Made by a program: the position numbers and the translations under genes. A stretch of DNA of 20,000 nt from an uncultured virus (IMG/VR IMGVR_UViG_3300050821_011652) (Duplodnaviria > Heunggongvirae > Uroviricota > Caudoviricetes), in IMG/VR virus record IMGVR_UViG_3300050821_011652; one strand, given 5' to 3'. The notes beneath the pieces were generated by a model. The model had not been told where the DNA came from and searched no databases. It saw only the letters and a list, made by a program, of their open reading frames with translations. This document shows, one piece after another, positions 286 through 19,523 of this stretch (the first letter of the stretch is position 1; each line of letters opens with the position of its first letter).

Positions 286-756
286 CTAAAGAAACAATAA
301 TGCAGATATGGAATCGGCGCATTCCATATTTCTGGACTGAAGGAAGCGAAGAGTTCGCCCGATAATCTTCATCTCCGCCACCGAAAAAGTATCAGAACGA
401 ATGCGATTGCACTGGGCACAACAAGGCACAATGTTGCCTGGACTGTACCCACGAGCGTTATTTATACGGTCAGCGCCGACGCCCTTTTCTACTCCGCAGT
501 AGTGACAAGGCTTTGATAAAACGTGCTTCTCCAACCATTCCTCAGTTATGGTCACAGACAAACCCCGCCGACGACTTCTGCGTTGATAAAAATACAGCAA
601 GCGGTGCGCCCGATGATTCAATGAATAAACCTTATCGCGCTTAGCAGAACAGACGCGACAAACGCGGGCAAGCCACCGTTGACCGCGCTTGCGAAAATAT
701 TCCTCCGTCTCTGGTTTCTCCTTCTTACAACGCGAGCAGCGCCGGAGTTCTGTCAT
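286..756 (-). CDS. HNH-type (beta-beta-alpha-Me) endonuclease with N-terminal zinc finger, probable free-standing homing endonuclease
   Basis: N-terminal CxxC...CxxC (CSRC/CRVC). C-terminal CHYCG...DRINNARGY...NIVPCCAQCN motif. ATGA overlap with the upstream gene. Confidence 0.85.
   Translation of the reverse strand: MTELRRCSRCKKEKPETEEYFRKRGQRWLARVCRVCSAKRDKVYSLNHRAHRLLYFYQRRSRRRGLSVTITEEWLEKHVLSKPCHYCGVEKGVGADRINNARGYSPGNIVPCCAQCNRIRSDTFSVAEMKIIGRTLRFLQSRNMECADSISALLFL
307..328 (-). promoter_or_regulatory. Dispersed palindrome copy (perfect)
   Basis: Sense TATGGAA-tgcgccga-TTCCATA, 22 nt upstream of ATG 284. Confidence 0.75.
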
Positions 757-3700
757 TGCCTAGGAGAGATTGTTCCTACCCGGGCGTTATATTGATCCTG
801 GGTTTCGCCCGGCAGAGGCTTTCGACCGGTGCGAATATCCCACACGAGATCCGATTCATGCCCAGGGGCGGCAGCGGGGATCGGAACGGGCGGCCTCATT
901 AAGGTCAACGGATCCTTGGCGGGAAGAAACGTGCCGTAAGGTCCCACAGTCGAAACATTATCCACGGCTGCCCCGACGCGGGAGTTGTACTGCGCCTGGG
1001 TTTCAGTCGGCAATGGTTCGACCGTCTGATTAATCGAAAACGTCGGAATCGGCGGCCGCATCAACGTGTCTGGATCTTGAGCCAGGATATGGCCGTCATA
1101 CGGACCCGGACCCGAAGTGGGCGCTAGCCCAATGGCCACTCCGGGCGTGACAGAGCTTCCACTTGCGTTGACTGCGCGAACTCGGTAGAAATATTGGGTC
1201 GTTGCAGGGGTCGCGCTCGTATCGGTGTAGGACGTCGTTCCTTGAGTTAGCACTACCGAAAGAACATTTTGAGTGAAGGCGCCATCTGTCGCTCGGTCCA
1301 GGTATAGCCCGTGCGGCTTCGTCTCATTGTTCGTCCAGCTTACGTTAACGCCTACAGCCACTCCTAATCCGGACGGCGCCGCGGGTTGGCCGGTGAGTGG
1401 CGGGAATACTGAATCAAAGGTCCAGTTATTCGTCCAGCTAATCGATAATGCGCCGGAGTTCGGATCAACTGCAACCGGCAACATGATATGTCGCCAACCT
1501 TTAAAGCTGTCGTTTGTCGTCTGTATTGAGGGAGGGAAGACGCTAAAATCCCAGCGATCTCCGACGTATATAAGCGCCGGAGTTCCTGCGTTTATTCCCT
1601 GCCTACCGGGAATAATGTAAAACCCGTCAGTCTGAGAATCGAAAGCGAAATTCTGTGATGGAGTGAAAGGATGAGAACCAGAACTCCAATTCCCGGCTGC
1701 ACCATCAGTGAGTTCGTTAGCGTCCGGCTGGAAAGGATTAGACGGAGCGCTCCATGTACCGAGTGGACCTGTAGTATTTGTTACATACAGATTGAGGCCA
1801 GGAGGCCATGGCGATAGATTTGACGATTGCCAATAGTACGTGCTCCCGATCTTGAACATGGCAAAACCTTCTGACTGTCGTCCGAAAGGAGTTGTATTTG
1901 TACCATCGCTCTGATTGTTGTATGCAACAAATGATCCGCTCGTGTTAGTGTAGGTTGAATTGAGTTTATGAATTACTATGTAAAAGGTAGTGTTGTTGGG
2001 AGTTCCTCCTGCATTATCGCAAATAATTAGATAACAACTACCATCAGTATCTAAGAATAGTTTAAAATCTCCCTGGGTATTATAACCATCTAGCACCGTG
2101 TACGACGCGAAGAGTGTCCACGGACCACCGGGAGCAGGAGCCGTGAATACTGACGAATTATTCGACAGACCCTGTTGCGTCCACATCACATAGTTATTGT
2201 TAGCAACATTATAAACCACGCTGACCCTGTTAACTGGAGGGGCGCTTTGTGCTATATTGCTGCAATTGCTAACATAATTCCAGTTGCGAAGATCAATAGA
2301 GGAATAACAATCAACACCTGCTCCTTTAGCCTCTACTACACCATTTTGGTCTACGTTCTGTCCGTACCAGTACCAAAGACCGCTAACCGGGTCTAGGAAC
2401 TTATCGCCTGCGATTGTCCAGATTCGGTAGCCTCCTCTATTCAAGGAGTAAGGAATATCAGTAGGAACGATCGAGGTGATGTGATAGCTGGCCAAAGTTA
2501 CCCGGCTGTTAGACAAGCCGCTCAAGACAGCAATCGCTTGGATCACTTTGTTGGATGAAATAACAATTGGGCCGGTGTATTGCTGAGATGTACCTCCGCC
2601 CGCGCTCGGTGTGCTGCCGTCGGTTGTATACCAAATGGCAGCGCCGGTGGTCGGAGTCGCCATGCTAACCTGAACAGGCAAATCGTAGTATCCACCAGTC
2701 GTTCCGTTCGTGTTGGTTATTGAAACTGGAGCACAGGTCGCGGCAACACCAGAGTAATAGGAACCATAGAACTCCAGATCGGCTGGTGCGCTAGATGCGG
2801 CTGGTAGTGTAATCCGATAGTATCTGTAATAACCCGATAACTGAGGGAACGTTAAATTATTATGCAGCGTCCCCCACTGAGGGGCCGCAGCTGGAAGTGT
2901 TGCAGTAGCGTTAATCGGAAATATGGTCTGGAATGAGGCAAACGTAGGATCATTACTGGCCTGAATTTGAGCTGTGTTGGGCGTGACTAAATTGGTGTAA
3001 TTAACCGGATTTATAAAGCTAAGTAACACATGATCAGCCTGGATAGGTGCGCCACAATCAATTCCAACATAGTCGCCGCTAGCGTTAGGGTTTAACCATT
3101 GCGTCCAAGAACCACCGGCGGTCGGAATGGCCTGTGTCTGTGATCCGGCATCAAACACCAAAGCTTTTGTGGTGGCATTACCATTTGGATCATTGCCGCC
3201 TCCGGCAGTGCCGATAATACTTCCCGCTCCTCCATTAGTTCCGAGTACTACTTGACCATTGGTTATGGTTCCAAGAGCATTCGACCAACCCACCGCAATG
3301 CACACCCAGTCAGCCGACACGCTGGATGTCATAACTGCTGAGGTAGCGGCTTGTGTGGCTATTAGCTGAGAAGCGGAAGCCCCAAGTAAAGGGGATGTTC
3401 CTCCAGATTGCGCTGCTGTGTACCCGCTACCAGGAGTAATGACCGCGCTGGCAGCGTGGACATAACCAAACTCAATAAAGAGTTCGTTAGCTCCGGGCAT
3501 TGAAAGATTAGGCGTGCTGAGATCTGTCCCGGAAGAAGCAGAGGCTTGCCCATTAGAGCACCCAACTATAGGAGCATTACTAATTTCGTGAAGCTCCAGA
3601 TAAACGTATTGAACTGTAGTTGCGGATCCGAAATTAACAGTGACGGTCGTTGATCCGGCAGCAACATTTACAGCTGCCCAAACTTGACCCCAGGATCTAT

Positions 3701-3914
3701 TGGCTCCTCCGTAACCTATAGTAACCGGTTTCCATACATTGCCGAGGTTATCGGTTACGCTCTGAACTGCGGGGATGCCCGCCCCCCGGAAGCATCCAAT
3801 ATCAAGCTGAAGGGAATTGCCTGTGGCAACGCCGGTTAAAGTAATGGAGACGGAGGATGTAGTTCCGCTCCCATTAGAAACCTTATTACCCTGAACGTAT
3901 GCTGGATTAGGCAT
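753..3914 (-). CDS. Multidomain virion/receptor-binding glycoside hydrolase: N-terminal beta-sandwich, galactose-binding-like domain, Fn3-associated (CHB_HEX_C-like) domain, GH43 five-bladed propeller (GH43_24-like), Fn3, C-terminal repeats
   Basis: IWYTTDGSTP...YTGPIVI (about 2480-2680). WYWYGQ, GVDCYSSIDLRNW, YVMW, GDFKLFLDTDG, SEGFAMFK, FDSQT, YVGDRW (about 1420-2430). PAAPSGL...VSW...YFYRVRAVN (about 1130-1390). Ser/Thr/Gly-rich, no signal peptide. Confidence 0.8.
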   Translation of the reverse strand: MPNPAYVQGNKVSNGSGTTSSVSITLTGVATGNSLQLDIGCFRGAGIPAVQSVTDNLGNVWKPVTIGYGGANRSWGQVWAAVNVAAGSTTVTVNFGSATTVQYVYLELHEISNAPIVGCSNGQASASSGTDLSTPNLSMPGANELFIEFGYVHAASAVITPGSGYTAAQSGGTSPLLGASASQLIATQAATSAVMTSSVSADWVCIAVGWSNALGTITNGQVVLGTNGGAGSIIGTAGGGNDPNGNATTKALVFDAGSQTQAIPTAGGSWTQWLNPNASGDYVGIDCGAPIQADHVLLSFINPVNYTNLVTPNTAQIQASNDPTFASFQTIFPINATATLPAAAPQWGTLHNNLTFPQLSGYYRYYRITLPAASSAPADLEFYGSYYSGVAATCAPVSITNTNGTTGGYYDLPVQVSMATPTTGAAIWYTTDGSTPSAGGGTSQQYTGPIVISSNKVIQAIAVLSGLSNSRVTLASYHITSIVPTDIPYSLNRGGYRIWTIAGDKFLDPVSGLWYWYGQNVDQNGVVEAKGAGVDCYSSIDLRNWNYVSNCSNIAQSAPPVNRVSVVYNVANNNYVMWTQQGLSNNSSVFTAPAPGGPWTLFASYTVLDGYNTQGDFKLFLDTDGSCYLIICDNAGGTPNNTTFYIVIHKLNSTYTNTSGSFVAYNNQSDGTNTTPFGRQSEGFAMFKIGSTYYWQSSNLSPWPPGLNLYVTNTTGPLGTWSAPSNPFQPDANELTDGAAGNWSSGSHPFTPSQNFAFDSQTDGFYIIPGRQGINAGTPALIYVGDRWDFSVFPPSIQTTNDSFKGWRHIMLPVAVDPNSGALSISWTNNWTFDSVFPPLTGQPAAPSGLGVAVGVNVSWTNNETKPHGLYLDRATDGAFTQNVLSVVLTQGTTSYTDTSATPATTQYFYRVRAVNASGSSVTPGVAIGLAPTSGPGPYDGHILAQDPDTLMRPPIPTFSINQTVEPLPTETQAQYNSRVGAAVDNVSTVGPYGTFLPAKDPLTLMRPPVPIPAAAPGHESDLVWDIRTGRKPLPGETQDQYNARVGTISPRQ

Positions 3915-4473
3915 TGCTTAGTGAATTCTTATCAAATGTGCGAAGGTCGGCGTCCCTGTTCAGCCAACCGTGAAGGAATTGCCGGAGACGAGAGTTGTTG
4001 TCGGCCAGGTGTTCATAATGAATGTCGGCCAGGTCAACGATCTTAAGTGCGAGCTGCTGCGGCGACGCCCACTGCTTCACCAAAGAAAGCGTCTGCGGTC
4101 CAATAACGCCGTCGGGTGCCGCATGCACCGCCATCTGTAATAGCCGGGCGGCCTCAGACTCACCGCAATTCACAGAGTAGTTAGCCACCGTCGCACCGAC
4201 AGGCGCCGGCAAACGGTCGGCAGAAGACTTAAGCCAGTCATCCGTGTACTCGTTCACAACGGCTTCAGGCGTAGGATGGGAAAAGGGAAATTTCTGATGA
4301 GACGACTGGTCAATGCCAGCGAAGGTCAGGCCGCCACCATCGCCCGGAACGTTCTCAAACTTGATCGTGCCAGTGTGAGGATCGGTCACATCCTCATGAT
4401 CGAGTTCAAAACCCAACCAGTCGGTGAAGGCGTGGTCGGAGCCGGAAGCGTTAAGGACGTCTTGTTTAGTCAT
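3907..4473 (-). CDS. Endolysin, glycoside hydrolase family 108 with C-terminal peptidoglycan-binding segment
   Basis: HE...DGGGLTFAGI catalytic-region motif, VNCG, LQ...DGVIGPQTL and FLHGWLNR, all characteristic of GH108 phage lysozymes. Confidence 0.9.
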   Translation of the reverse strand: MTKQDVLNASGSDHAFTDWLGFELDHEDVTDPHTGTIKFENVPGDGGGLTFAGIDQSSHQKFPFSHPTPEAVVNEYTDDWLKSSADRLPAPVGATVANYSVNCGESEAARLLQMAVHAAPDGVIGPQTLSLVKQWASPQQLALKIVDLADIHYEHLADNNSRLRQFLHGWLNRDADLRTFDKNSLSNA

Positions 4474-4639
4474 CTATTGAGACCGGTTGTCCATCGTCGG
4501 CCGGCGGTTCCCACCACGGACCGATCGACCAGTGAATCCAAGCGACATGCGCCACTACCACCCCACGATTGTCGGCCCCTTGCGGAGCCGATGATCCTAC
4601 ACAAGAGGTCAAGAGGAATAGTAGTGGCAGCCACTTCAT
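4466..4639 (-). CDS. Small lipoprotein (57 aa), o-spanin-like candidate
   Basis: Not in the ORF track. MKWLPLLFLLTSC/VGSSAPQ...WSIGPWWEPPADDGQPVSIDD has lipobox LTSC. ATGA overlap with the upstream stop and 8-nt overlap with the endolysin start. Confidence 0.75.
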   Translation of the reverse strand: MKWLPLLFLLTSCVGSSAPQGADNRGVVVAHVAWIHWSIGPWWEPPADDGQPVSIDD

Positions 4640-4845
4640 TTCTTAGGCGGCACCAAACTTGTGGGAGCCCCATTGCTTGATGGAGCACTGCCCACGGATG
4701 GAACAAAGTGATTCCATACCTGAGCGATGATTGCCCCAACGCCGGCTACCCACAGATTGTGCGACAAAAAGTCATTGATCTGCGGGGTAAAAATCCCGAC
4801 GAGTTGAATCAAAATAGGAACGAGAAGAGCTAGAAGAGAATTCAT
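4636..4845 (-). CDS. Small membrane protein (69 aa), holin-like candidate
   Basis: Likely start is ATG 4845, just after the upstream TAA, rather than 5064. MNSLLALLVPILIQLVGIF...LWVAGVGAIIAQVW...PPKK gives two hydrophobic segments and a basic C-terminus. Confidence 0.7.
   Translation of the reverse strand: MNSLLALLVPILIQLVGIFTPQINDFLSHNLWVAGVGAIIAQVWNHFVPSVGSAPSSNGAPTSLVPPKK
4697..4718 (-). promoter_or_regulatory. Dispersed palindrome copy
   Basis: Sense TATGGAA-tcactttg-TTCCATC, upstream of the small lipoprotein and endolysin. Confidence 0.65.
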
Positions 4846-4846
4846 A

Positions 4847-5248
4847 TTAATAACCAGCATTTGTGAGACCATTAACAAAGTCGGTGCAATACGTATCAAA
4901 GACGGTATTACCCAACCCATAGGTCGTATATACTTCAGCGAACACCGCACTCGCGGCACCCAACGCAATCGACAATGCCGGTGCATCTTTCGAAGGTAAC
5001 TTGGCAGCGATAAGCGCCTGTAGCTGAGCGACGGGCAGCGTACCATTAGCGAACGCAGCGACACCGGTTTTGATCACTGAAATGTCACCGACCTCGCTGG
5101 CCGTCAAATATGGCCTCGCGATAGTCGCGACCGTTTGAATATCTGCTCCGACCTGCGCCGGGGCCACAATCGCCGGAGGCTGCTGATTCGCAGCACAGCC
5201 AGCGAACAGAGCCAGCCCGACACAACACACTAACAATTTGATTTTCAT
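4847..5248 (-). CDS. Lipoprotein (133 aa) in lysis cassette
   Basis: MKIKLLVCCVGLALFAGC has lipobox FAGC, followed by an Ala-rich helical body. Confidence 0.8.
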   Translation of the reverse strand: MKIKLLVCCVGLALFAGCAANQQPPAIVAPAQVGADIQTVATIARPYLTASEVGDISVIKTGVAAFANGTLPVAQLQALIAAKLPSKDAPALSIALGAASAVFAEVYTTYGLGNTVFDTYCTDFVNGLTNAGY

Positions 5249-5406
5249 TTTTTGTCTTTCGAGTTTGATTTGGTGAGTGAAACCAATGACGCGGCAACAG
5301 AAAGTATGAGGGCCGTTATCGCTAGTCCCTCATGGATGTTTTCTAACGCGCCGCCCGCGCCAGCTAACACCACGCCTGCCAATGCGAAGGTGCTATGCGA
5401 GTGCAT
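5245..5406 (-). CDS. Small two-TM membrane protein (53 aa), holin-like candidate
   Basis: Not in the ORF track. MHSHSTFALAGVVLAGAGGALENIHEGLAITALILSVAASLVSLTKSNSKDKK has two hydrophobic segments and a Lys-rich tail. It fills the gap exactly, with an ATGA overlap to the next gene. Confidence 0.75.
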   Translation of the reverse strand: MHSHSTFALAGVVLAGAGGALENIHEGLAITALILSVAASLVSLTKSNSKDKK

Positions 5407-5644
5407 TTAGGAAGCCATTTCCATTCTGGCCTTGGTCGGTGTCGGACTCGGAACCAGCCTGCGATTTCGATGACTTTTTATCGTCCTCGTCGCCGTCATC
5501 ACCGATCGGAATACCATCGAGGGAAACTAGCTCGGCGGATCCATCCTCTGCCAACTTAAGGCTGGCGACAGCGTCGAACGTCTGACCAGGCTCCACATCC
5601 TGTGGCACCTGAAAACCTTGAGGGAGTGGAAATTCTACAGCCAT
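5393..5644 (-). CDS. Small acidic protein downstream of capsid gene (possible head accessory protein)
   Basis: 83-aa ORF with ATG after an A-rich leader. Compact N-terminal domain plus acidic tail. Function inferred from position only. Confidence 0.65.
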   Translation of the reverse strand: MAVEFPLPQGFQVPQDVEPGQTFDAVASLKLAEDGSAELVSLDGIPIGDDGDEDDKKSSKSQAGSESDTDQGQNGNGFLNALA

Positions 5645-5664
5645 TTTTCTTTTCTAATCCTCTT

Positions 5665-5690
5665 CAACCGGGGGCGTTAACCCCCGGTTG
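5665..5690. other. GC-rich stem-loop after capsid gene (mRNA stabiliser, attenuator or processing site)
   Basis: Perfect 10-bp inverted repeat CAACCGGGGG-cgttaa-CCCCCGGTTG. No U-tract follows on the coding (-) strand. Confidence 0.7.
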
Positions 5691-5707
5691 GTAGGAGGAG
5701 CGGCAGG

Positions 5708-6922: not shown

Positions 6923-6958
6923 AGAATTACCCTCTGAACTTTCTTTAAAAGGTTAAAG

Positions 6959-6980
6959 TACTGAACTGATAGATTCCATA
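6959..6980 (-). promoter_or_regulatory. Dispersed palindrome copy
   Basis: Sense TATGGAA-tctatcag-TTCAGTA in the capsid leader. Confidence 0.65.
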
Positions 6981-7074
6981 CGGCGACCTGCGCCGACAAA
7001 TAGGAACCAGTTTTACTTCGCCCTTCGAGGGAGAGAGCCTTTATACACTCGAACAGACCGAAAAATCTTGGCTG

Positions 7075-7620
7075 TCAGACCGGGACAGCTCCGTCTTGCA
7101 ATATGGACGGCGCAAATTCCGTATGCAAGCGCAAATAATAGGCCGCTTTCTCGAGAACTTCAGGATTGTCCTTAAACTTACCCAGTCCTAAATTGCACTC
7201 ATTACACAACAATCCTCTGATCTTTCCCTTCGTACGCGATATTTTTCGGACCTCTCCGGGCAAATGAACGTGGTCAATATGAAAACTACTAACACATTCC
7301 GCCTGCGGAAGCGCACAGATCGCGCATAGCCCGTTTTGAGCCTGGAGCATCTCGGCGTACGCCTCGGGCGTAAGCCCGTACGATCTTTTTAGGTCAGTCT
7401 TTCGCGCCAGCTTACGTCGCCCCAGCAATCCAATACGCTGTCTATACCGACGAGTGTTTTCACGTCTTCTCTCGCGGTATTCTGGCTCCTTTTCTTTTCG
7501 TCTGTAATAAGCGGCGTGGCACTTTTTACACCACGAGCCCCTACCATCATGGCGCTGTGGACTTCGAGAGAACTCCTCCAAAGGCTTCTCCTCACTACAC
7601 TGCGTGCAAACCTTCCTCAT
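7075..7620 (-). CDS. Endonuclease VII-family protein with N-terminal zinc finger, probable free-standing homing endonuclease
   Basis: CTQC...WCKKC; YGLTPEAYAEMLQAQNGLCAIC; IDHVH; IRGLLCNECNLGLGKFKDN...AAYYL. Confidence 0.9.
   Translation of the reverse strand: MRKVCTQCSEEKPLEEFSRSPQRHDGRGSWCKKCHAAYYRRKEKEPEYRERRRENTRRYRQRIGLLGRRKLARKTDLKRSYGLTPEAYAEMLQAQNGLCAICALPQAECVSSFHIDHVHLPGEVRKISRTKGKIRGLLCNECNLGLGKFKDNPEVLEKAAYYLRLHTEFAPSILQDGAVPV
7102..7123 (-). promoter_or_regulatory. Dispersed palindrome copy
   Basis: Sense TACGGAA-tttgcgcc-GTCCATA, with additional flanking CTTGCA/TGCAAG symmetry. Confidence 0.65.
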
Positions 7621-9219: not shown

Positions 9220-11618
9220 TGTTGGTTGCCCTCATTTTCAGCTGCTTGATAATCCTGCTGCGAAGCGAGGCCGCCCTCATGCGCGGCACGTTTCGCAAAG
9301 CGGGCATCTTCCCAAGCTATCTTTTGTTTCGCTTTTGCCGACTCGATCTGCATCTGCTGTGCCGCCTCACGCTGCGCAATATCCATCTTCACTTGAGAAG
9401 CGCGGAGTAACGCGGCCGTCTTTGGATCCATACCGGCCGGGAGAGGAGGCTGTCCAGATTGATCAACTTGAGCGCCAGGGACGGGAGCCTTCCCGCCGGG
9501 AACCGGTGCCCCGCCCTCGCCAGGCGCCATCGCGGACATCTGCTCTCCTTGCTTAGCCGCAGCCTGCTGCTCTTCAGCGATGTTGTGGTCAAGCTCGGTC
9601 AAGAAGCCTTCGATCAAATTCAACGTCTTTCCGAACTGGCGAAGCTCAAACCGCCGAGTCGGATCGACCGACATCGCTTGCAAATGCTGTGCGCAGTGCG
9701 GCAAAAATAAATGGAGTTGCTGAGACCCATTAGGACCTGGTACGACTCCTGCCTTGATAGCGTTTATGATCTGCGAAATCTCATTCGTATGGACTGCCAA
9801 GTGAACAATATGCACCTCAGTCTTACCAACTTGGATCTGTTGACCAAGCACCATCTGACCGTTCTCAAGCTCGGCAATCTTCTGATCCATGATCGGACGC
9901 ACGCCTTGATTAAGCGGCGGCGCGTAACGGTCAGCTTGTGCGTAACCAACGTGGGCAGCAATCCGATCGCGAATCACGTTGCGCCGGCCGACTTCATCTA
10001 GCTGAGGAGCAATCTGCGCAATCTCATCAAGTGCCAGCATACGGGCTGACGAGGAACCAAAACCGATGGCGCGAACCGCATGGACATGTTTAACTTTACG
10101 AAACGCCTCTTCCGGAACGTGGCGCTGCATGCACCTGCGCCGGAATTCAAACGCCTCTTTACCCCCGGGAAAATTTTGCTGCAGCCCTTTCTGAACCATA
10201 CGGCGATAAACCTCGTTCAGAGTTTTTTCCCACGGGCCGTAGAATAGGTTCATCGCGCCTGTTGAAATCGTCGCCTGCTGTTGCAACCGCGCCTGCACCT
10301 CAAACTTTGTCTTCTCCGTCCCTTGGGGTCCAAGGTCAGCGCCGCGCGGCTGATAAGAACCGATCTGTGAGTGCAGCATCTGCTCCAAATGCTCGATGGT
10401 AGGAATGCCTTGCTTACCCAAATCCGGACGAGTGACTTCCTGAATCTTCGCGCCTGTAGGGATCACCGAGAAGGGCCCAAAATACGCGAACGCTATCTCA
10501 TCCATCGTGCTCGCATCGTCCACCTGAACGATCTGGCTCATCGCAAAAAACGTCGAATCGATCAAGCCACAACGCAGCATGTTGTTGATCTGAACCTGGG
10601 GGAAAACCTTATAACCTAACCCACGGATTGAGTGGAGAAACCCATCTCCAATCCCGTAAGTAAATAACTGGATGCACTGGTCAATGTTCTCAAACCGGCG
10701 TTCCTTCTTGTAGAGAAAATCCTTCAGCTCGCCGTTTTCAGTCGTGATGTAGTGGGAAACGCTCCCATCAAATTCCACCACGTAGGCATGAACCACATGA
10801 ATTTCCTTAGTCCTCACTCGACCGAAATAGATGTCATTATTCTTGATCTCTACTTCGATCTGCTCCCATTCCATGGTCTGAATGCTTGAGATGTTCGACG
10901 TCGTCGCCCGACGAATCGCTTCCTGGGTCATCTCGATATTCCAGCCCGCCTTCTCCGCTGTCTCCCGATCCTCAATGTATTTGTAGAGCTGCGGAGTAGT
11001 GTAGCGACGACGAACGAATAGATAGTCTATATCGTCTGTAGTAGCCGGGGTGTGCCGGGGCAGAAACACATCCATGAGTCCCGCGACCTTCCACCGCCAG
11101 TCCCATTCATTTTCCCAAAAATTAAACCCGACCCCGTGGTCGATAAAGTTACGTGCCAAGTCCTGCACGTTAAATTCGAACCGGCTCCATCCCCGGAGGA
11201 TGTTATCAAACTCCTCCGCCATTACTTCCTCCCATTCCAGCCTCTGCTGGTTGTCCCCATACTCGATCTCAAAGGTCGCAATCTTATCGACTGAAGATGT
11301 AAGATCATTGTAGGCGGTATGTGCCGCCTCACATAGAGCGGCCCCTTCACCAAAGTTCAGGTTCGCTCTCTGTCCCTGTCCCAATGCATCAAGCTCGGCC
11401 TGATCAAAGGGCGGAGCGTTATCGATCATGCTCGAGACACTGGCCCGATCACGGGAGGACTCGCGGTCGGCGATCAGAGCATTGATATAGATCTCATGAA
11501 GCGCAGTGGCAGTAGTAACACGCGTACGAGGGGCCTTACCCTCGCGGTCGAGGTTTAACAGATAGTCCTCATTGCTTTGGGCGGCAGGAGGAGGTGTTAC
11601 TGACTGTGAGAATTCCAT
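9216..11618 (-). CDS. Probable portal (head-tail connector) protein, podovirus-like with long Gln/Ala-rich C-terminal helix
   Basis: 800 aa. Position between terminase and scaffold/capsid. N.G....L, FIDHGVGF and KTKFEV...Q features plus a Q/A-rich C-terminal barrel, as in P22-like portals. Confidence 0.75.
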   Translation of the reverse strand: MEFSQSVTPPPAAQSNEDYLLNLDREGKAPRTRVTTATALHEIYINALIADRESSRDRASVSSMIDNAPPFDQAELDALGQGQRANLNFGEGAALCEAAHTAYNDLTSSVDKIATFEIEYGDNQQRLEWEEVMAEEFDNILRGWSRFEFNVQDLARNFIDHGVGFNFWENEWDWRWKVAGLMDVFLPRHTPATTDDIDYLFVRRRYTTPQLYKYIEDRETAEKAGWNIEMTQEAIRRATTSNISSIQTMEWEQIEVEIKNNDIYFGRVRTKEIHVVHAYVVEFDGSVSHYITTENGELKDFLYKKERRFENIDQCIQLFTYGIGDGFLHSIRGLGYKVFPQVQINNMLRCGLIDSTFFAMSQIVQVDDASTMDEIAFAYFGPFSVIPTGAKIQEVTRPDLGKQGIPTIEHLEQMLHSQIGSYQPRGADLGPQGTEKTKFEVQARLQQQATISTGAMNLFYGPWEKTLNEVYRRMVQKGLQQNFPGGKEAFEFRRRCMQRHVPEEAFRKVKHVHAVRAIGFGSSSARMLALDEIAQIAPQLDEVGRRNVIRDRIAAHVGYAQADRYAPPLNQGVRPIMDQKIAELENGQMVLGQQIQVGKTEVHIVHLAVHTNEISQIINAIKAGVVPGPNGSQQLHLFLPHCAQHLQAMSVDPTRRFELRQFGKTLNLIEGFLTELDHNIAEEQQAAAKQGEQMSAMAPGEGGAPVPGGKAPVPGAQVDQSGQPPLPAGMDPKTAALLRASQVKMDIAQREAAQQMQIESAKAKQKIAWEDARFAKRAAHEGGLASQQDYQAAENEGNQQ

Positions 11619-11619
11619 T
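11598..11619 (-). promoter_or_regulatory. Degenerate palindrome copy overlapping portal start
   Basis: Sense AATGGAA-ttctcaca-GTCAGTA. Confidence 0.4.
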
Positions 11620-11643
11620 AGTTAATTTATTTTTATCAATGGG

Positions 11644-12729: not shown

Positions 12730-12738
12730 GCTAGCGGA

Positions 12739-13551: not shown

Positions 13552-14426
13552 CCTCCCTTCGATCCGGGAAACGGAGCGGGGGCTAGGGGGTCAACGACCG
13601 GAGCGGTCGGCGCAGACTGAGAGACAACGTTTTTCTTTTTCTTATCGATCTTGACTGCCTTTATTCCTTTAGCAGCAAGCCGACCTCGAACGATGTTCAA
13701 AAGCGAATCGTCCTTCACCCCGTGGATCACCGCAGCACTCCAATCAACTGGATGAACCACCAATTCGGCAGGCCTGCGACCGACGCCGATGCCGACCACT
13801 GTGCCATCCTTCTGGGTCTTATACTCAGCGGTCTGCCACTGGTGATCGATCAAGCGCGTGCTGTGCGCGAGGGGCATCAAATACCATTGAAGGAAAACAT
13901 CGAAGGCCAGAGTTGCGACAGTGATGTTATCAAAAATAGGAATCCGACGCGGAAGATCGCGGGAGTAAACCGCGCATCCAACAACGTGATTGCCGTCTTG
14001 GACTAGCTTTCCATCAACACGGCCTCTATAGGACGGATGAACAAAACCCATCACGGGGCGCATGCCACGTCTGTAGTCGGCTTCAAGCTCGTCTAGCCAC
14101 CCAGGACGGGTCGGAACAGAATCACCAGCCTCGAAAAAATACCAGCCCTCACACGGTATGTGTGAATGGATGTGTTTGGCGACGAAATGAAAATAAGAGT
14201 TTGGGCCTTCTGGCCATCCAGTCCTCAACTTCGGAGTCGTCACTGTATGGACCCGAGAAAACAAAGGGCCAATGAGATCTTCAATTTCGTTCCTGACAGG
14301 AACTAATTCCTCGGTCGTTGCCAAGAGAAGATCATGGGTTCCCTCGTTGGGAACGAATTTTAAAAACCTAGCAAGCCGCAGCGCGGCTTCATGGTCAGCA
14401 TGCGAAAAAGCAAAATTTATTAACAT
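13542..14426 (-). CDS. Putative GT-A-like glycosyltransferase (divergent)
   Basis: GWPEGPN...F; WYFFEAGDSVPTRPGWLDELEADY (ExxD in place of DxD); VGCAVY; AFDV; IHGVKD. Likely start ATG 14426 (track start GTG 14456). Confidence 0.6.
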   Translation of the reverse strand: MLINFAFSHADHEAALRLARFLKFVPNEGTHDLLLATTEELVPVRNEIEDLIGPLFSRVHTVTTPKLRTGWPEGPNSYFHFVAKHIHSHIPCEGWYFFEAGDSVPTRPGWLDELEADYRRGMRPVMGFVHPSYRGRVDGKLVQDGNHVVGCAVYSRDLPRRIPIFDNITVATLAFDVFLQWYLMPLAHSTRLIDHQWQTAEYKTQKDGTVVGIGVGRRPAELVVHPVDWSAAVIHGVKDDSLLNIVRGRLAAKGIKAVKIDKKKKNVVSQSAPTAPVVDPLAPAPFPGSKGGWK

Positions 14427-14466
14427 TCGGATTTTACCGCCCGAAGAGGCGTTCACAAGCCTACCG

Positions 14467-15231
14467 CTAAAAGTATGGAATCGTCAAGTTCCATACTTTT
14501 GCAACTTCCATCGCTTCCGGGGACTGACTCCAGCTATGATACTGCTTCCATTTACTGGGCTGCACTTCCTTCAATTCTCTCACACGGTAAAATCCAGGCT
14601 CAAAGTGATCCGCATAGTACCCCAACAGGTCATAGTCTATTAGCGTAATTGGATGCGTCCCAAATCTCTCAGGCCTAAACTCAACACCGCTGTAGACCAA
14701 ATCCCAATAGGCCTGCCCATGCAGCCGCGTTAGCCACTGCCGCATGCCGGCGAACGTGCTCCGGTGATACATGATCGGCGTTGAGGCCATGTAGTGTTTC
14801 TGGGTGCCCTGGCGCGCCAAACGTTCCGTCACCCGTTGCCAAGGGCTGACCGAGTACATTTCGTTGTGCTCCTTATAAGACATGTAGGGGATAATCGGTT
14901 GGTACGCCCCCAGGTCATTCAAATCCGAGGGCCCGGTCAAGATGCAGTCCGAGTCCGTCAAAACAATCAATTCCCCTCTGGAAAACTCATCGGCCATCGT
15001 CTTGACGTACATGGCGTGGCAATAACCGTCTGGCCAAGGCTTCACGTAGAAGACCGAAAGATCGAGATTGAAATCGCTGCCAGAAATACGTCCTCGGCAA
15101 TCTTCGTCCAATACTAAAACGACCTCAGTCTCAGGCGTCTCCCAGTTGCACTCAATCGAGCGCAAAGCATAGGAGAGCCATTTGAGATCACGCGCCCAAC
15201 TCTTAATGAATATCGTAACCTTGGTGCTCAT
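14467..15231 (-). CDS. GT-A fold glycosyltransferase-like protein (DUF6492-like)
   Basis: IFIKSWARDLKWLSYALRSI; GYCHAMYVK; IVLTDSDCIL (DxD); DYDLLGYY; QYHSW. Likely start ATG 15231. Confidence 0.75.
   Translation of the reverse strand: MSTKVTIFIKSWARDLKWLSYALRSIECNWETPETEVVLVLDEDCRGRISGSDFNLDLSVFYVKPWPDGYCHAMYVKTMADEFSRGELIVLTDSDCILTGPSDLNDLGAYQPIIPYMSYKEHNEMYSVSPWQRVTERLARQGTQKHYMASTPIMYHRSTFAGMRQWLTRLHGQAYWDLVYSGVEFRPERFGTHPITLIDYDLLGYYADHFEPGFYRVRELKEVQPSKWKQYHSWSQSPEAMEVAKVWNLTIPYF
14469..14500 (-). promoter_or_regulatory. Dispersed palindrome copy (perfect 12-8-12)
   Basis: Sense AAAAGTATGGAA-cttgacga-TTCCATACTTTT at the GT1/GT2 junction. Confidence 0.8.
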
Positions 15232-15252
15232 AGAGAACCACAACATTCCATA
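15231..15252 (-). promoter_or_regulatory. Dispersed palindrome copy filling the terL-GT1 gap
   Basis: Sense TATGGAA-tgttgtgg-TTCTCTA; the last A is the A of the GT1 ATG. Confidence 0.65.
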
Positions 15253-15253
15253 C

Positions 15254-17029
15254 TCAACGCTTCCTCGCCAACACTCCACGAATCGAAAGCCTCGGCACCT
15301 TAGGCGACCTGGCCGTTAAGATCTGCGTCCAGTTTCGTTTCTCCCTCGGACGGTCATTAGCAGGATACCGCATGCCGGCCTCGCCGCCGGGGATGGCGCC
15401 CAACCGAGTGCGGCACAGATCAACCACAATCATCGCGGCATCGGCAAGGTCAGGGCTCTTACTGATCCGCAGTTTCATGTCGACTTTACTCTCGACCAAC
15501 ATTTTCAAATTATCACCGGCCTTGCGCGTCTCGTATGATCGCGAGGTCAACTCCTTGGCCAGCTCCGAGTCCACCCCTTTGAGTTGGAAATTTCGGAGAA
15601 ACTCATGGCCCGCGAACCAGAGCTCCGATACCCGGTTACAGTATTTATCCGTCCCGACCTCATCCGAGAAAGCGCTTACCCTCATATCGCTGGGGGCTCC
15701 ACCGAACGCGACCGGCAGCACCTTCGAGTCCCACTCCTTGGCCACAATGTCCGCGAACGGGATGTTGGTCGAATCAAAGGCGGCGTGATAGGGGAGGATA
15801 TCCTCCTTCTCACAAAGCTCCTTCCACTTCTGCACAATCTGATAGTTCCGAGGAACGTCCTTCTTGGTCACGTCTTCCTCAAGGATCACCCTCTTATAGA
15901 ACCAGATCACCATCCGGCCATCGACATCCCGGCCGTAAAACGCCAAATAGACGGCTGATCGGTCGCCGCCATTCGTGAATCCGGGATCCAGGGCCGACAC
16001 TTTGATCGGCGCCTCCGTCCCCCAAATCGGCTTATCCCCCGATTTGAACCGGATCATGTCTGCCTCGGAATAAATATTTTGTTCCGACCCGGTCGGGCAC
16101 CAAAACCCCCGGAACATTCTCCAAAATCCAACGCTATTCGGATCCGAGTTATCCAAAGCGTCCTGAATCTTCTTGACCGAAATTATCGGGTATATATCCT
16201 CCTGGGCTAACCAATTGGGCGAATGCAGGGCATCGAAATGCACCACCACCCCCCGTTTAGTTCTCCATTTCTTATCGTCTACCGTGATGGATCCCCATCC
16301 CTCGGCCGGCTCACAGAACAGGCCGAACGGGTCATAGTAGCTCTTCGGGTTACCGGAAGCCACCATCTGAAAGTATGGATTGAGGCTCATGTTGTCATAA
16401 GCCGCATGCAGGATTGCTTCAGTAAGCTCGGGCAACTCATCGGCAATAAGGAAAACGCGCTTCTGCTTCATCCCGATCATTTTGCCGATCTTCTCCTTTT
16501 CGAACTTCTTCTCCCCCGCGATCAAATGGATTCCCACACGATCGGAAAAGGGATTGTTTCCGCGCCCATCGTCGTACCTAATCTGCCCGGCCGACTCAAC
16601 AATCACTCCGGGAAGTCCAGGCGCCGCGCGCCAATACTCGAGAATACTTCCCCATATTCGAAGCCGGGCATCCTTCAACGTGGTGCTCGTAACAAATGTC
16701 AAAGTCCAAGCCGGAGCGCAGGAGTAATTTACGATAGCCCACATAGCCGACAAATCGGTCTTGCCACTCGAACCACAGCCGGCCAGGCCTACATATTCCT
16801 CCCGACACAATTCCTCCAACCCCTCGATGGCCCAAGGATGCCAAACAAAATGTTTCGGGCTGCCAGGACCCCAAAGGACCTGCACAATGCGCTTGAAATG
16901 CTCCGCCTTGCCCATCCCCCCGGACTCCTTCGTATACCCCTCACGAAAAGCGATAAACTCAATGGTCAGTGCGTCAAGCCCCGCCGGAAAAGTGCGGCCG
17001 TATTTGACGACCGGGTCACCAGAACTCAT
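15254..17029 (-). CDS. terL: Terminase large subunit
   Basis: Walker A GCGSSGKT, Walker B FLIADE, motif III SGNP, nuclease-domain ALDPG...GDRSA and C-terminal SPDLADAA. Confidence 0.93.
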   Translation of the reverse strand: MSSGDPVVKYGRTFPAGLDALTIEFIAFREGYTKESGGMGKAEHFKRIVQVLWGPGSPKHFVWHPWAIEGLEELCREEYVGLAGCGSSGKTDLSAMWAIVNYSCAPAWTLTFVTSTTLKDARLRIWGSILEYWRAAPGLPGVIVESAGQIRYDDGRGNNPFSDRVGIHLIAGEKKFEKEKIGKMIGMKQKRVFLIADELPELTEAILHAAYDNMSLNPYFQMVASGNPKSYYDPFGLFCEPAEGWGSITVDDKKWRTKRGVVVHFDALHSPNWLAQEDIYPIISVKKIQDALDNSDPNSVGFWRMFRGFWCPTGSEQNIYSEADMIRFKSGDKPIWGTEAPIKVSALDPGFTNGGDRSAVYLAFYGRDVDGRMVIWFYKRVILEEDVTKKDVPRNYQIVQKWKELCEKEDILPYHAAFDSTNIPFADIVAKEWDSKVLPVAFGGAPSDMRVSAFSDEVGTDKYCNRVSELWFAGHEFLRNFQLKGVDSELAKELTSRSYETRKAGDNLKMLVESKVDMKLRISKSPDLADAAMIVVDLCRTRLGAIPGGEAGMRYPANDRPREKRNWTQILTARSPKVPRLSIRGVLARKR

Positions 17030-17055
17030 TACGGAACCGTCCCACGAATTCCATA
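17030..17055 (-). promoter_or_regulatory. Palindrome variant with 12-bp spacer abutting terL ATG
   Basis: Sense TATGGAA-ttcgtgggacgg-TTCCGTA-ATG. Confidence 0.55.
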
Positions 17056-17100
17056 CCCGAGCAAACTTTAGGAAATTTCAAGTTGCAATATCTTTATTTT

Positions 17101-18240
17101 ATGAGAAATATTGCGCACAATTCCCTACGCAAGGACGAAGACACTATAGACATGAAACAAAGACCAGAACGTAAAGACATGATGTCTCCAATACGCATAC
17201 AAAAAGGGCTGGCAAAGGTTGGGATTTACCACGTGATCAACCGCGACGAGTGGTTGCATTTCCAGGTGATCTGGAGGGAAGCGGGCAAAATGCGCCGAAA
17301 ACAGTTCCCGACCCTTGATGAAGCCAAGGCGTACGCGGAAGAACAAGCCGACAGGTTGGCAAATGGATCCGGCCTGTTGGTCCCGGTGCCCCGGAAAGAA
17401 ATTGCGAGGTACCGAAGCCTAGAGAACATGCTCGGGACCAAGGTCACGCTGGAAGATATCGTCCAGCAGTGGGTGGCGAAAAAGTCACACTTCCACCCGG
17501 GCACGCAAGACACCAAAGCGATTGTCGCCGAGTACCTGAAGCACCGGACCAAAGACAAAGAGGTTCTCCTCAAATTCAGCCTCTTTTTCGAGCCCGTGCC
17601 CTTCTCCAGCATTATCGCTCTGGATATCGAAAGATTCGTCAAAGACCAGAACTGGACCGGCAACCAATCGAGGCTTGATGCACTCCACGCCTTACAAGCC
17701 CTATTCGACTGGGCAAAAGAAAGGGGATACCTGGCCCCCACTACCCATACGGCTGCAGAGCAGGCTCTCGACGCCCAAGAAATAACAGAGATCCTATCTC
17801 CAGAGGAGCTCCGAACGATCTTAAAAAATGTTCCGAAACAAGATATCCCCCTCGTCGCCCTAAGCGCGTACGGAGGGTTCAGCCTGCAGCAGATCGCAAT
17901 GCTGCGATGGGAAGACATCAACTGGTCATCGAAGACGTTAGATCTTCAAGCGCTACAAATGAAAGAGCCGCTCAAGCTGTCGGAAGGCATAACTAAGATG
18001 CTACAGCGGTACCGAAAGCCCAAAGGGCCCTTGAAACAGGATCTCACACCTCAAAATCTCAGGCGCGTCGCGATCCGGTCGGGGATCAAACATTGGAAAC
18101 CCCGAATCCTTACGCGCTCATCCCGGATCTACACGCAGCTAAAAGAGAATCCCGACAACCAAGAAATCACCGGCATCGAATCTAAAGACGCCGAAAAGTG
18201 GTTTGAGGTGCTTGACACCTTAGGGCAAAGCAGCTCATGA
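17101..18240 (+). CDS. Tyrosine recombinase/integrase-like protein, apparently catalytically inactive (start uncertain: 17083/17101/17152/17180)
   Basis: Arm-binding-like N-terminus (RRKQFPTLDEAK), core-binding domain (LQALFDWAKERGYL), EILSPEELRTIL, box I-like GGFSLQQIAMLRWEDI. Catalytic R, HxxR and Y are not recognisable. Confidence 0.8.
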   Translation: MRNIAHNSLRKDEDTIDMKQRPERKDMMSPIRIQKGLAKVGIYHVINRDEWLHFQVIWREAGKMRRKQFPTLDEAKAYAEEQADRLANGSGLLVPVPRKEIARYRSLENMLGTKVTLEDIVQQWVAKKSHFHPGTQDTKAIVAEYLKHRTKDKEVLLKFSLFFEPVPFSSIIALDIERFVKDQNWTGNQSRLDALHALQALFDWAKERGYLAPTTHTAAEQALDAQEITEILSPEELRTILKNVPKQDIPLVALSAYGGFSLQQIAMLRWEDINWSSKTLDLQALQMKEPLKLSEGITKMLQRYRKPKGPLKQDLTPQNLRRVAIRSGIKHWKPRILTRSSRIYTQLKENPDNQEITGIESKDAEKWFEVLDTLGQSSS

Positions 18241-18425
18241 AAAGAGTCGATAAATTCGCGTATATCGTCGGACGAATAGTTGTTTGGCCCCTCTACGTCC
18301 TGATAGCTCTAGTCATGGTTCTAATAATCATTCGGGCAATCCCGGACATGCTTCTGTACTTCGCAATCGCCGCGATTATTTGGGGCATCGTGAAGATCGT
18401 ACAGTTCTTTCGGCGCCAACACTAA
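18237..18425 (+). CDS. Small two-TM membrane protein (possible superinfection exclusion)
   Basis: 62 aa, very hydrophobic with basic ends. ATGA-coupled to the recombinase-like gene and followed by a terminator. Confidence 0.7.
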   Translation: MKRVDKFAYIVGRIVVWPLYVLIALVMVLIIIRAIPDMLLYFAIAAIIWGIVKIVQFFRRQH

Positions 18426-18447
18426 AACCTTTCTTTTCACAATCGAG

Positions 18448-18485
18448 GCCCAGGAGCACGGACGTTCCTGGGCTTTTCGCGTTTT
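18448..18485 (+). terminator. Rho-independent terminator
   Basis: GCCCAGGAGC-acggac-GTTCCTGGGC stem (one G-U pair) followed by TTTTCGCGTTTT. Confidence 0.85.
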
Positions 18486-18498
18486 GCAATGCCCATAC

Positions 18499-18527
18499 TT
18501 TAATCGAAGTGTTAGTAATGCTATAAT
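18499..18527 (+). promoter_or_regulatory. Sigma70-type extended -10 promoter for the HTH/RuvC operon
   Basis: TGcTATAAT at 18519-18527. Weak -35 TTTAAT at 18499-18504 with 17-bp spacing. Confidence 0.65.
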
Positions 18528-18532
18528 TCTCA

Positions 18533-18556
18533 TATTGCACACTTGACTGTGCAATA
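18533..18556. promoter_or_regulatory. Operator-like palindrome at predicted transcription start
   Basis: Perfect 9-bp inverted repeat TATTGCACA-cttgac-TGTGCAATA directly after the -10 element. Contains a TTGACT -35-like hexamer. Confidence 0.6.
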
Positions 18557-18580
18557 GGCATCGCTTAAATCTTCCGCTTG

Positions 18581-18847
18581 ATGATCATCATAGGTTCCCC
18601 TGAAGCAATAGTGCAAAGGTATGATGACCACATAACCTTGCTCTCTGACCCTACAAACCCGGACACCCAGTTAACCAGCGAACAAGCTGCGAAGTTACTC
18701 GGGGTGTCTCTGCGGCAGTTTTATTACTTACGCAAAGACAATGTCCGCCCACTGCCGTACACGCGGAGCGGTTCAAGGGTATGGTTCAGTCGGAAAGCGC
18801 TTCTTAAGTTTAAATATGCTGCCCACCCCGCCTTTCCCCGTACATGA
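18581..18847 (+). CDS. Helix-turn-helix DNA-binding protein (excisionase/MerR-like, HTH_17-type)
   Basis: LTSEQAAKLLGVSLRQFYYLRK...LPYTRSGSRVWFSRKAL. Confidence 0.85.
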   Translation: MIIIGSPEAIVQRYDDHITLLSDPTNPDTQLTSEQAAKLLGVSLRQFYYLRKDNVRPLPYTRSGSRVWFSRKALLKFKYAAHPAFPRT

Positions 18848-19037
18848 AAACAAAGTCACCACTTTCCTTATTCTTAACGGATCCGAATTCATTGTTGGAT
18901 TCGTGATCGGCGACCCCGAACTGGGGCCGCTTATTCACCGCCAAGTCTACGACAATGGTCTCGAAGCACAGTATGCGCTGCGAGAACTGGAGGCCGATCT
19001 CTATGATAGGCCTGTAGAATCGCTCTCGACCACCTAA
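18816..19037 (+). CDS. Hypothetical protein
   Basis: In-frame ATG 18816 within track ORF 18741-19037; fills the gap between the HTH and RuvC genes. Confidence 0.55.
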   Translation: MLPTPPFPVHENKVTTFLILNGSEFIVGFVIGDPELGPLIHRQVYDNGLEAQYALRELEADLYDRPVESLSTT

Positions 19038-19053
19038 CCGCGGCAAGCTAGAA

Positions 19054-19075
19054 TATGGAACGAAATCGATCCTTA
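19054..19075 (+). promoter_or_regulatory. Dispersed palindrome copy at RuvC start
   Basis: TATGGAA-cgaaatcg-ATCCTTA. Confidence 0.55.
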
Positions 19076-19506
19076 TCGCAGCAATCGATCCTGGGCTCAA
19101 AGGCGGAATCGCCACATGGGATGGAAAGATTGTGGAAGCGTACCGAATGCCTGAGACCGACCTCAAACTTATTCAATTGCTCAGAGATCTAAATCCAAAT
19201 GAAACAATTATTGAAAAAGTTGGGACTTGGATCCCTCCTGAATGGAGAGGCAAATACGCTTTCACCTTCGGCTGGGCCGCCGGCGCGCCTTATTGGATAC
19301 TCAGGACACTGGGGAACCGCGTTCGTCTTATCCCTCCACAATGCTGGCAGCGGTCACTCAAGCTTGATCCTAAATCCGATCACGGGAAGAACTGGAAGAA
19401 GTATCTAATGGCTCAGGCCCAGCAAATGTACCCCCAGCTCGCAATCGATTTAACGACAGCCGATGCGCTGTTAATCTTGACTGCGGCTCTTCGCGGCCTA
19501 GTATAG
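19060..19506 (+). CDS. RuvC-like Holliday junction resolvase (start non-canonical or frameshifted)
   Basis: The frame upstream of the track start reads TKSILIAAIDPGLKGGIATW (RuvC motif I), then IIEKV, AFTFG, PQCWQ and ADALLI. Confidence 0.85.
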   Translation, partial: TKSILIAAIDPGLKGGIATWDGKIVEAYRMPETDLKLIQLLRDLNPNETIIEKVGTWIPPEWRGKYAFTFGWAAGAPYWILRTLGNRVRLIPPQCWQRSLKLDPKSDHGKNWKKYLMAQAQQMYPQLAIDLTTADALLILTAALRGLV

Positions 19507-19523
19507 AACAAGCACCATCCATA
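19502..19523 (+). promoter_or_regulatory. Dispersed palindrome copy between RuvC and next gene
   Basis: gTATAGAA-caagcacc-ATCCATAc, 5 nt before ATG 19529. Confidence 0.65.

Follow-up and report, generated by a model that had tools for sequence, protein, structure and literature searches.

The window analysed here – the whole 20,000-nucleotide stretch examined, from IMG/VR record IMGVR_UViG_3300050821_011652 – comes from an uncultured tailed phage of soil and carries two divergently transcribed operons. Scattered over both are nine copies of an inverted repeat whose perfect form is TATGGAA-N8-TTCCATA (hereafter the dyad), and next to the point of divergence lies a gene (17152–18240, plus strand) whose product, judging from residue alignments and a predicted structure, is a tyrosine-recombinase fold without its catalytic residues (hereafter the dead recombinase). 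The window represents 20 kb of a genome of about 77 kb, about 74% of which lies outside it; the longest contig in the protein cluster of the window's integrase-like gene has 76,861 bases, and complete relatives measure 76–79 kb with direct terminal repeats. The leftward operon, on the minus strand from 17029, is the late or structural side and begins with an open reading frame (ORF) of 591 amino acids (aa) showing weak similarity to terminase large subunits (hereafter terminase-like). The rightward operon, on the plus strand from about 17100, encodes the integrase-like protein (the dead recombinase), a 62-aa ORF, a helix-turn-helix (HTH) protein of the HTH_17 family, a RuvC-like resolvase and two small ORFs.

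Perfect dyads were found at 307–328 (−; half-site weight-matrix score 24.8), in the last codons of an endonuclease VII-like ORF and 22 nt before the start (284) of a fibre-like ORF, and at 14474–14495 (−; 24.8), in the last codons of the 261-aa ORF (ORF261) and 17 nt before the GTG of the 304-aa ORF. The copy at 4697–4718 (−; 21.1) has one mismatch, in its downstream arm, and lies 57 nt before the ATG (4639) of a 57-aa lipoprotein-like ORF, or 23 nt before an alternative ATG (4673). Two mismatches, again in the downstream arm, mark the copies at 6959–6980 (−; 19.4), intergenic and 63 nt before the TTG of the 395-aa ORF, at 15231–15252 (−; 19.0), 2 nt past the stop of the 591-aa ORF and overlapping the likely start of ORF261, and at 19054–19075 (+; 19.0), overlapping the N-terminal codons of the RuvC-like gene. 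One mismatch in each arm was seen at 7102–7123 (−; 19.2), at the 3′ end of the endonuclease VII gene, where TTGCA/TGCAA flanks lengthen the palindrome, and at 19502–19523 (+; 19.6), 5 nt before the ATG of a 64-aa ORF, where a G-to-A change in the upstream arm makes the TAG stop of the RuvC-like gene. The ninth copy, TATGGAA-N12-TTCCGTA at 17030–17055 (−), abuts the ATG of the 591-aa ORF within the 122-nt divergent region shared by the terminase-like and dead-recombinase genes. Both endonuclease VII-like genes (286–756 and 7075–7620), which are free-standing, have a dyad in their last codons.

An earlier sequence-only reading had counted 10 exact TATGGAA/TTCCATA heptamers where roughly 2–3 would be expected, and this was borne out: 10 copies over both strands compared with 2.25 expected (standard deviation 1.36, maximum 6), a count reached by none of 200 dinucleotide shuffles. 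Enrichment over a shuffled background, which that reading had proposed to test, also held for the full 22-mer, with 8 copies of TATGGAA-N8-TTCCATA at ≤3 mismatches compared with 0.78 expected (0/200 shuffles reaching 8). When spacers of 0–20 were scanned at ≤2 mismatches, N8 gave 8 sites, N3 (7899), N6 (3717) and N12 (17030) one each, and the 17 other spacers none. The N3 and N6 matches were rejected as sites, their number being that expected by chance; the N12 match is probably a genuine site because it has one mismatch where, by our arithmetic, about 0.003 such matches are expected per spacer. A half-site weight-matrix scan was bimodal, with 8 sites at 19.0–24.8 and the next best at 10.8 (11598–11619, −), as against a 95th percentile of 15.4 for the maximum and a mean of 1.07 sites scoring ≥10 in 500 shuffles. 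The weak copy at 11598 was dropped since its score lies within the shuffle range; its ATGGAA is the ATG-GAA start of the 800-aa ORF. Of the roughly ten palindromes first proposed, nine of them with an 8-bp spacer, nine sites therefore stand – eight with N8 and a free centre and one with N12 – and the copy at 11598, which had been counted among the N8 sites, is at chance level. Shuffling of synonymous codons lowered the dyad count from 8 to a mean of 3.49, a comparison that is not clean as intergenic sites are left unchanged by it. Very weak dyad-like matches, scoring below the null (7.8 and 7.0), flank the dead-recombinase start at 17069–17090 and 17172–17193; these might be low-affinity autoregulatory sites or chance.

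With respect to placement, eight of the nine supported sites end between −22 and +65 nt from an annotated gene start, compared with 10.1% of all positions, the exception being 7102 at 206 nt; two of the starts (ORF261 and RuvC-like) were set with the sites known, and without them the count is 6/7. Read along transcription, the upstream arms carry 2 mismatches and the downstream arms 10 by our count, and at all five sites with unequal arms the perfect arm is upstream (one-sided p ~0.02–0.03 by our arithmetic). The proposals that most copies lie at or just before gene starts on both divergent arms, and that their polarity flips with the operon, are thus both upheld. Within the half-site, positions 1, 2, 5 and 6 (TA..GA) are retained in 17–18 of 18 arms, positions 3, 4 and 7 change in one arm independently of the other, and the nine centres are all different. 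The reading frame across the motif differs from site to site, so that a repeated peptide was rejected as its origin and the motif is not a coding repeat. A restriction or methylation target was likewise set aside, as it would leave the placement at gene junctions unexplained.

One of these gene starts is unusual. The RuvC-like gene (19033–19506, +; phrog_1770) has no ATG, GTG or TTG 5′ of its catalytic IAAIDPG motif, and extending its frame back to 19054 improved the phrog_1770 match from E 1.2e-8 to 1.4e-17 and aligned the protein with the N-termini of its relatives, which places the start inside the dyad at 19054–19075. Initiation could occur at a non-canonical ATC or by a shift from the motif's out-of-frame ATG. 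The start region is identical in an independent assembly (L140).

Conservation of pairing was assessed by RNA folding. Three of the nine sites folded better than shuffles (z ≤ −3.4; −9.1 to −10.4 kcal/mol) and six gave z values of −0.02 to −1.75, five of them at −0.6 to −4.7 kcal/mol and the N12 site at −8.8. Arm deviations sit mid-stem, at positions 3 and 4, and none is compensated in the opposite arm. What is conserved around a free centre is therefore sequence and not pairing, which points to a protein of two-fold symmetry on duplex DNA, and we consider it likely that the dyads serve a dimeric phage protein as operators or roadblocks, as a prediction from this pattern. That they are sites of one dimeric protein had been proposed at the outset, and it has become the best-supported explanation (fixed spacer, conserved positions in 17–18 of 18 arms, no compensation, folding at 3/9 sites), with binding itself predicted. 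Should the motif act as RNA, a 7-bp hairpin before start codons could control translation as an operator, mark a processing site or stabilise the RNA. Such a role would suit the orientation of the motif, which tracks transcription on both arms, the several starts that lie 0–23 nt downstream of sites, the three well-folding sites and the presence of both N8 and N12, since hairpins accept either loop alike; the occurrence of Shine-Dalgarno words before only 3/22 genes (13% background) also makes other initiation signals plausible. We nevertheless regard it as improbable, given the six sites that fold no better than shuffles, the mid-stem changes that are never compensated and the lack of any Rfam match in the window.

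Promoter function was judged less probable still. Here the dyads would be, or overlap, phage-specific promoters or activator sites that restart transcription at junctions and yield short-leader or leaderless mRNAs, which would agree with their orientation, their position at gene starts and the nearly invariant upstream arm; both plus-strand sites moreover have a sigma-70-like −35/−10 pair ending on the first base(s) of the motif. Dyad symmetry and a free centre are, however, not promoter architecture, promoter-like hits were not enriched (19 compared with 15.3 ± 4.0 in shuffles), relatives with the same backbone lack a comparable repeated motif, and a T7-type RNA polymerase (PF00940) was not found in four related genomes, a search in which the control genomes gave no match either. 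Both alternatives that accompanied the first proposal, promoters and translation-blocking hairpins, are accordingly weakened.

The recombinase-like protein to which the sequence-only reading had pointed proved an apt candidate, being catalytically dead and predicted to form a symmetric dimer. A full-library search with the integrase-like protein (phrog_1, E 7.8e-14) returned 735 homologues at E ≤ 0.001, and the 55 best full-length homologues were aligned with the window protein (56 rows). The Arg-Arg-Tyr triad is intact in 49 of the rows. The window protein and P0003 (85% identity) have Ser at Arg I, Thr at Arg II and a deletion of the Tyr segment, in P0005 (35% identity) Pro and Thr take the place of the two Arg and the same segment is deleted, and four further rows lack the Tyr, where truncation or misalignment is possible. 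A 138-aa fragment, P0006 (56% identity), belongs to the same dead clade, and the substituted motifs LSAYxG..Q and LT[RK]SxRxY are conserved across the four dead-clade members. The start was placed at ATG 17152 (residue 24 of the listed ORF, giving 362 aa) because P0003 begins there. Intact homologues scored above the cut-off of Pfam Phage_integrase (PF00589), the window protein and P0003 gave no match, and P0005 and P0006 gave partial sub-threshold matches (20.7 and 24.1 bits compared with a cut-off of 27.1). P0005 and the four-sequence alignment, searched against viral and genome collections, gave distant matches only (21–50% identity over the best segments, some of 30–50 residues); L152, the sole distant match checked for catalytic residues, is intact. 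Within the dead-recombinase gene we also observed a 39-nt internal direct repeat (17766–17804 and 18150–18188, +; 72% identity). In place of the Tyr segment the protein ends in a tail (…QEITGIES…) similar to an earlier …QEITEILS…, and this similarity suggests that a stretch was duplicated while the C-terminus was remodelled.

An AlphaFold2 (AF2) model of the window protein (mean predicted local distance difference test score, pLDDT, 89.1) comprises an N-terminal beta-sheet domain followed by helical domains. The top Foldseek matches in the PDB were XerA, lambda Int on COC′, Brujita Int, Tn1549 Int, IntI, Cre, the Phi3T SroF–DNA complex and YopR, eight of them at E ≤ 0.001, the SroF and YopR structures being 9rd5 (TMq 0.37) and 8bpz; phmmer of the protein against all PDB chains gave no hits at E up to 10. 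The homodimer model scored 0.48 compared with 0.00 for the best of three controls and has a symmetric two-fold interface at residues 73–108; the runs share ≥92% of contacts, and partner pLDDT is ≥76. The mark was reached by 20/30 proteins solved as same-chain pairs and by 1/23 solved as single chains, rough counts for which our own alignment was used.

Relatives of the terminase-like protein were found at 19 viral loci (42–63% identity), and the window dyad occurs at none of the 19. In 13 of the 19, no other repeated dyad was seen except coding repeats in L007, L008 and L002; an excess of 7-mers was looked for in 9 of the 19, and the enriched words in L004, L011 and L018 were unstructured or intragenic. 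Four related genomes (299 kb, three of them complete) contain no dyads at ≤2 mismatches, and three of the four lack a homologue of the protein. Conservation in related phages, which the sequence-only reading had proposed to test, was not found in these. Three loci with terminase-like proteins 52–53% identical to that of the window (L011, L012 and L010) have, where the window has the dead recombinase and likewise divergent from the terminase-like gene, a homologue with its catalytic residues intact. The intergenic region there contains GGGGACA-N7-TGTCCCC (TGACCCC in L010), 80–100 nt from the intact homologue, and a reversed pair 13–14 bp apart. A dyad of this type occurs nowhere else in the ~21-kb loci and as one exact copy in a complete 76-kb genome. 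The same three loci carry the palindromic word GCTAGCA (mostly TGCTAGCA) 22–25 times per ~20 kb compared with ~2.5 expected, mostly within genes and not at junctions. L001–L006 share a conserved single dyad, TTTCTAC-N4-GTGGAAA, ~20–40 nt upstream of the terminase-like match (e.g. L004 9950–9975); its right arm holds the apparent GTG start of the terminase-like gene in these six relatives, and there is no second copy in those loci.

Searches further afield gave little. The exact 22-mer of site 307 had no hits in IMG/VR, and the generic dyad pattern matched at least 118 stretches, with one contig carrying two copies among the matches listed; that contig was treated as unrelated because it has just those two in 65.6 kb at ≤2 mismatches. 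Against cultured phages, megablast of the window and tblastn of the 800-aa ORF and the integrase-like protein found nothing, and the 591-aa ORF gave weak terminase-like matches in five records (35% identity over 16% of the query). The terminase-like protein had no match in the genome contig collection.

Taken as a whole, our preferred explanation, to which we assign a probability of about 0.4, is that the nine dyads are operators of one phage protein that binds as a symmetric dimer, most likely the dead recombinase encoded at 17152–18240. The plan of the dyad, with 7-bp inverted arms and an 8-bp free centre, is that of a tyrosine-recombinase core-type site, and in lambda the core-binding (CB) and catalytic (CAT) domains bind core half-sites that are imperfect inverted repeats around a 7-bp crossover region (PMC4880445). 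By this mechanism, each protomer would use its core-binding domain and the domain that was once catalytic to clamp one TATGGAA arm, in the manner of recombinases on core-type sites, and would leave the 8-bp centre, the counterpart of the crossover region, unread; with Arg I, Arg II and the Tyr segment lost, the DNA would stay uncut. At occupied sites, which lie at gene starts or shortly before them in either divergent arm, RNA polymerase would be blocked during initiation or elongation, and the structural and lysis operon would be silenced together with the rightward operon, whether in a lysogen or during one phase of infection. As binder, the dead recombinase is the foremost candidate; its binding, its dimerisation on DNA and repression by it are what we infer from circumstantial evidence.

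The dyads may alternatively be operators of another protein – the 89-aa HTH_17 protein, a CI/Cro-type repressor or late activator encoded in the remaining 57 kb, or a host factor – with the dead recombinase unrelated to them, a possibility that we rate as appreciable but rather unlikely. All the evidence for a double-stranded DNA site counts equally for it, the HTH_17 protein is encoded in the same arm, and ~74% of the genome lies outside the window. In P1, dispersed operators are bound by a conventional repressor. Such operators with conventional repressors are also described in cluster A mycobacteriophages (PMC9283540). The arm centres of the dyad, however, are ~15 bp apart, which exceeds the usual one-turn spacing of small HTH dimers, and no CI-like protein was found among the 27 ORFs scanned. 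The recombinase-type site plan, the adjacency of the gene and the local dyads of the relatives would then have to be coincidence.

Several points weigh against the dead recombinase as a dimeric binder of the dyads. A dimer of rigid build would not be expected to accept N8 and N12 spacers alike, and the strongest case for an RNA or single-strand element is still made by the N12 variant together with the polarity that follows transcription. The co-absence of motif and protein rests on one phage with the motif compared with four without it, and the success of the homodimer model may in part reflect solved recombinase assemblies already known to the predictor. As 20 kb of ~77 kb is visible, a conventional repressor may be encoded elsewhere, and the HTH_17 gene lies 1.4 kb away from the candidate binder. 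Finally, SroF of phage Phi3T, which shares the fold, is described as a monomer encircling an asymmetric 26-bp box (bioRxiv 10.1101/2025.11.27.690993), as opposed to the 7-8-7 dyad and predicted symmetric dimer of the window.

Comparison with the relatives also bears on where the sites lie. The backbone of the relatives is tight, with overlapping stops and starts, and runs from the terminase-like gene through the 304- and 800-aa homologues to those of 111, 437, 395 and 83 aa. Genes of the window that are extra to this backbone have dyads at their edges: ORF261 lies between the dyads at 15231 and 14474, and the block from the integrase-like gene to a 98-aa ORF lies between those at 17030 and 19054. 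The endonuclease VII gene (7075–7620) is followed by the dyads at 7102 and 6959; in relatives this gene is not at this junction, and other genes are inserted there (L007). By our count, dyads occur at ~4–5 of 11 junctions with a window-specific gene compared with 1 of 5 core–core junctions, a difference that is not significant. It is a speculation that, for as long as the protein is there, the sites keep transcription of acquired genes from running on into the core late genes. The same borders (ORF261, endonuclease VII and the integrase-like-to-98-aa block) could be read as recombination or insertion scars or hot spots, either relics of core sites that a recombinase used while still active or targets connected with the two endonuclease VII-type genes, bounding acquired cassettes, and the arrangement is superficially integron-like in that a recombinase gene diverges from sites at gene 3′ ends. 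We hold this to be very unlikely, as all nine spacers differ, so that flanking pairs do not stem from recent conservative exchange, the adjoining recombinase is dead, the junction counts do not differ significantly and the site at 19502 sits between two backbone genes. An integron-like attC array as such was rejected, the sites being too short, their centres all different and the recombinase dead.

In the ORF list, the leftward operon (−) continues from the 591-aa ORF with ORFs of 261, 304, 270 and 361 aa and an 800-aa ORF followed by ORFs of 111 and 437 aa. Downstream of these come the endonuclease VII gene (PF02945, E 5.9e-22), the 395-aa ORF with its TTG start, small lysis-region ORFs with an endolysin (phrog_315, PG_binding_3), a 1053-aa ORF, the second endonuclease VII-like ORF (286–756, HNH-like) and the fibre-like ORF starting at 284 (GP4-fibre family match). 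Portal and capsid are our guesses for the 800- and 395-aa ORFs, from size and synteny and with no tool match. On the plus strand, the HTH_17 protein (excisionase/MerR-like; PF12728, E 1.2e-6) is encoded at 18578–18847. A strong GC hairpin, ccgggggttaacgcccccgg, at 5668–5687 (−) in the 63-nt gap 3′ of the 395-aa ORF has the character of an ordinary terminator or stabiliser and in this differs from the dyads. No tRNAs and no second repeat family were found in the window, and promoter- and terminator-like hits were not above shuffle level.

The same phage is contained in three soil metagenome runs from three studies, with no differences among the listed contig pieces and thus no natural variation at the dyad sites; no RNA runs were among the listed runs containing it. 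A 16.2-kb metagenome contig is 100% identical to the window, and a metagenome scan with the terminase-like protein gave one 100%-identical locus, wholly inside the window. Homologues of the integrase-like protein in genome collections are mostly from Verrucomicrobia and Planctomycetes, a taxonomy that hints at a host perhaps akin to these groups. The Shine-Dalgarno-like words, scarce as noted above, fit a host using Shine-Dalgarno-independent initiation, and upstream regions are often A-rich.

These strands can be drawn into a wider picture, which we offer tentatively and consider doubtful in its full form. A lambda-Int-type recombinase may have been domesticated, independently of YopR/SroF of the SPbeta family, in a podophage of a Verrucomicrobia- or Planctomycetes-like soil host and have become a dimeric genome-wide silencer on the ancestral core-site plan. 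Its N-terminal arm-type domain could bridge distant sites, and the sites would act as conditional roadblocks, mostly edging acquired genes, that shield core late genes from read-through and become transparent once the protein is gone. If true, this would be a second, independent case of an integrase turned phage master regulator, outside the phages of Firmicutes, and an intermediate state in which the operator still resembles a recombination core site and the protein still resembles lambda Int. It would also provide a search rule for further cases, namely an integrase homologue without Arg-Arg-Tyr together with a dispersed 7-N8-7 dyad. It would further caution that an “integrase” annotation in uncultured phages is by itself no proof of a temperate, integrating lifestyle.

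Several known systems share parts of this arrangement. Core-type recombination sites such as lox, FRT and dif consist of inverted arms around a centre of 6–8 bp. The lambda COC′ core-type site, whose centre is a 7-bp crossover, is like the dyads in having imperfect inverted arms around an unread centre, and the 7-7-7 dyad of L011 and L010 stands beside an intact homologue. Functional recombination sites differ, however, from nine dispersed copies with nine centres (no shared overlap) next to a recombinase without Arg, Arg and Tyr, and the placement of the dyads at gene starts suggests regulation and not strand exchange. The C1 operators of P1 and the KorB sites of IncP plasmids show one regulator acting at a dozen or more sites over a mobile genome, through protein families and site architectures that differ from those of the window. 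The stoperators of cluster A mycobacteriophages (L5 gp71 type), to which the sequence-only reading had likened the dyads, occur as >20 copies in promoters and short intergenic spaces, with an orientation that tracks transcription, and are proposed to stop both initiation and elongation (PMC9283540). In layout – many dispersed copies, gene junctions, orientation with transcription – the analogy stands. As to membership it does not, since L5-type stoperators are described as 13-mers lacking symmetry, to which a protein with an HTH and a stoperator domain binds as a monomer (PMC9283540), as opposed to a 22-bp dyad, and no protein combining an HTH with a stoperator domain was found among the 27 window ORFs scanned.

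By analogy, the closest known system is that of MrpR/YopR/SroF, integrase-fold master repressors in Bacillus phages of the SPbeta family, with their element SPBRE. MrpR/YopR of SPbeta is reported to have a tyrosine-recombinase fold that has lost recombinase function and to bind SPBRE, a 15-bp motif derived from nine peaks in chromatin affinity precipitation sequencing (ChAP-seq), mostly intergenic and long noted at “various intergenic regions” (PMC10516654). The likeness to the window comprises the CB and CAT domains of the tyrosine-recombinase fold, the loss of catalytic residues and a repeated element at about nine places (nine in 20 kb in the window). Binding is proven for the SPbeta repressor and predicted for the window protein, and MrpR begins with the CB domain, whereas the window protein retains, in addition, a beta-sheet domain at its N-terminus that resembles an arm-binding domain. 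The window protein also differs in having no detectable sequence similarity to MrpR/YopR/SroF, its nearest relatives being intact integrases of Verrucomicrobia and Planctomycetes. The absence of similarity to PDB chains, together with these intact nearest relatives, indicates that the protein is probably the product of a domestication independent of the SPbeta family and not a member of it.

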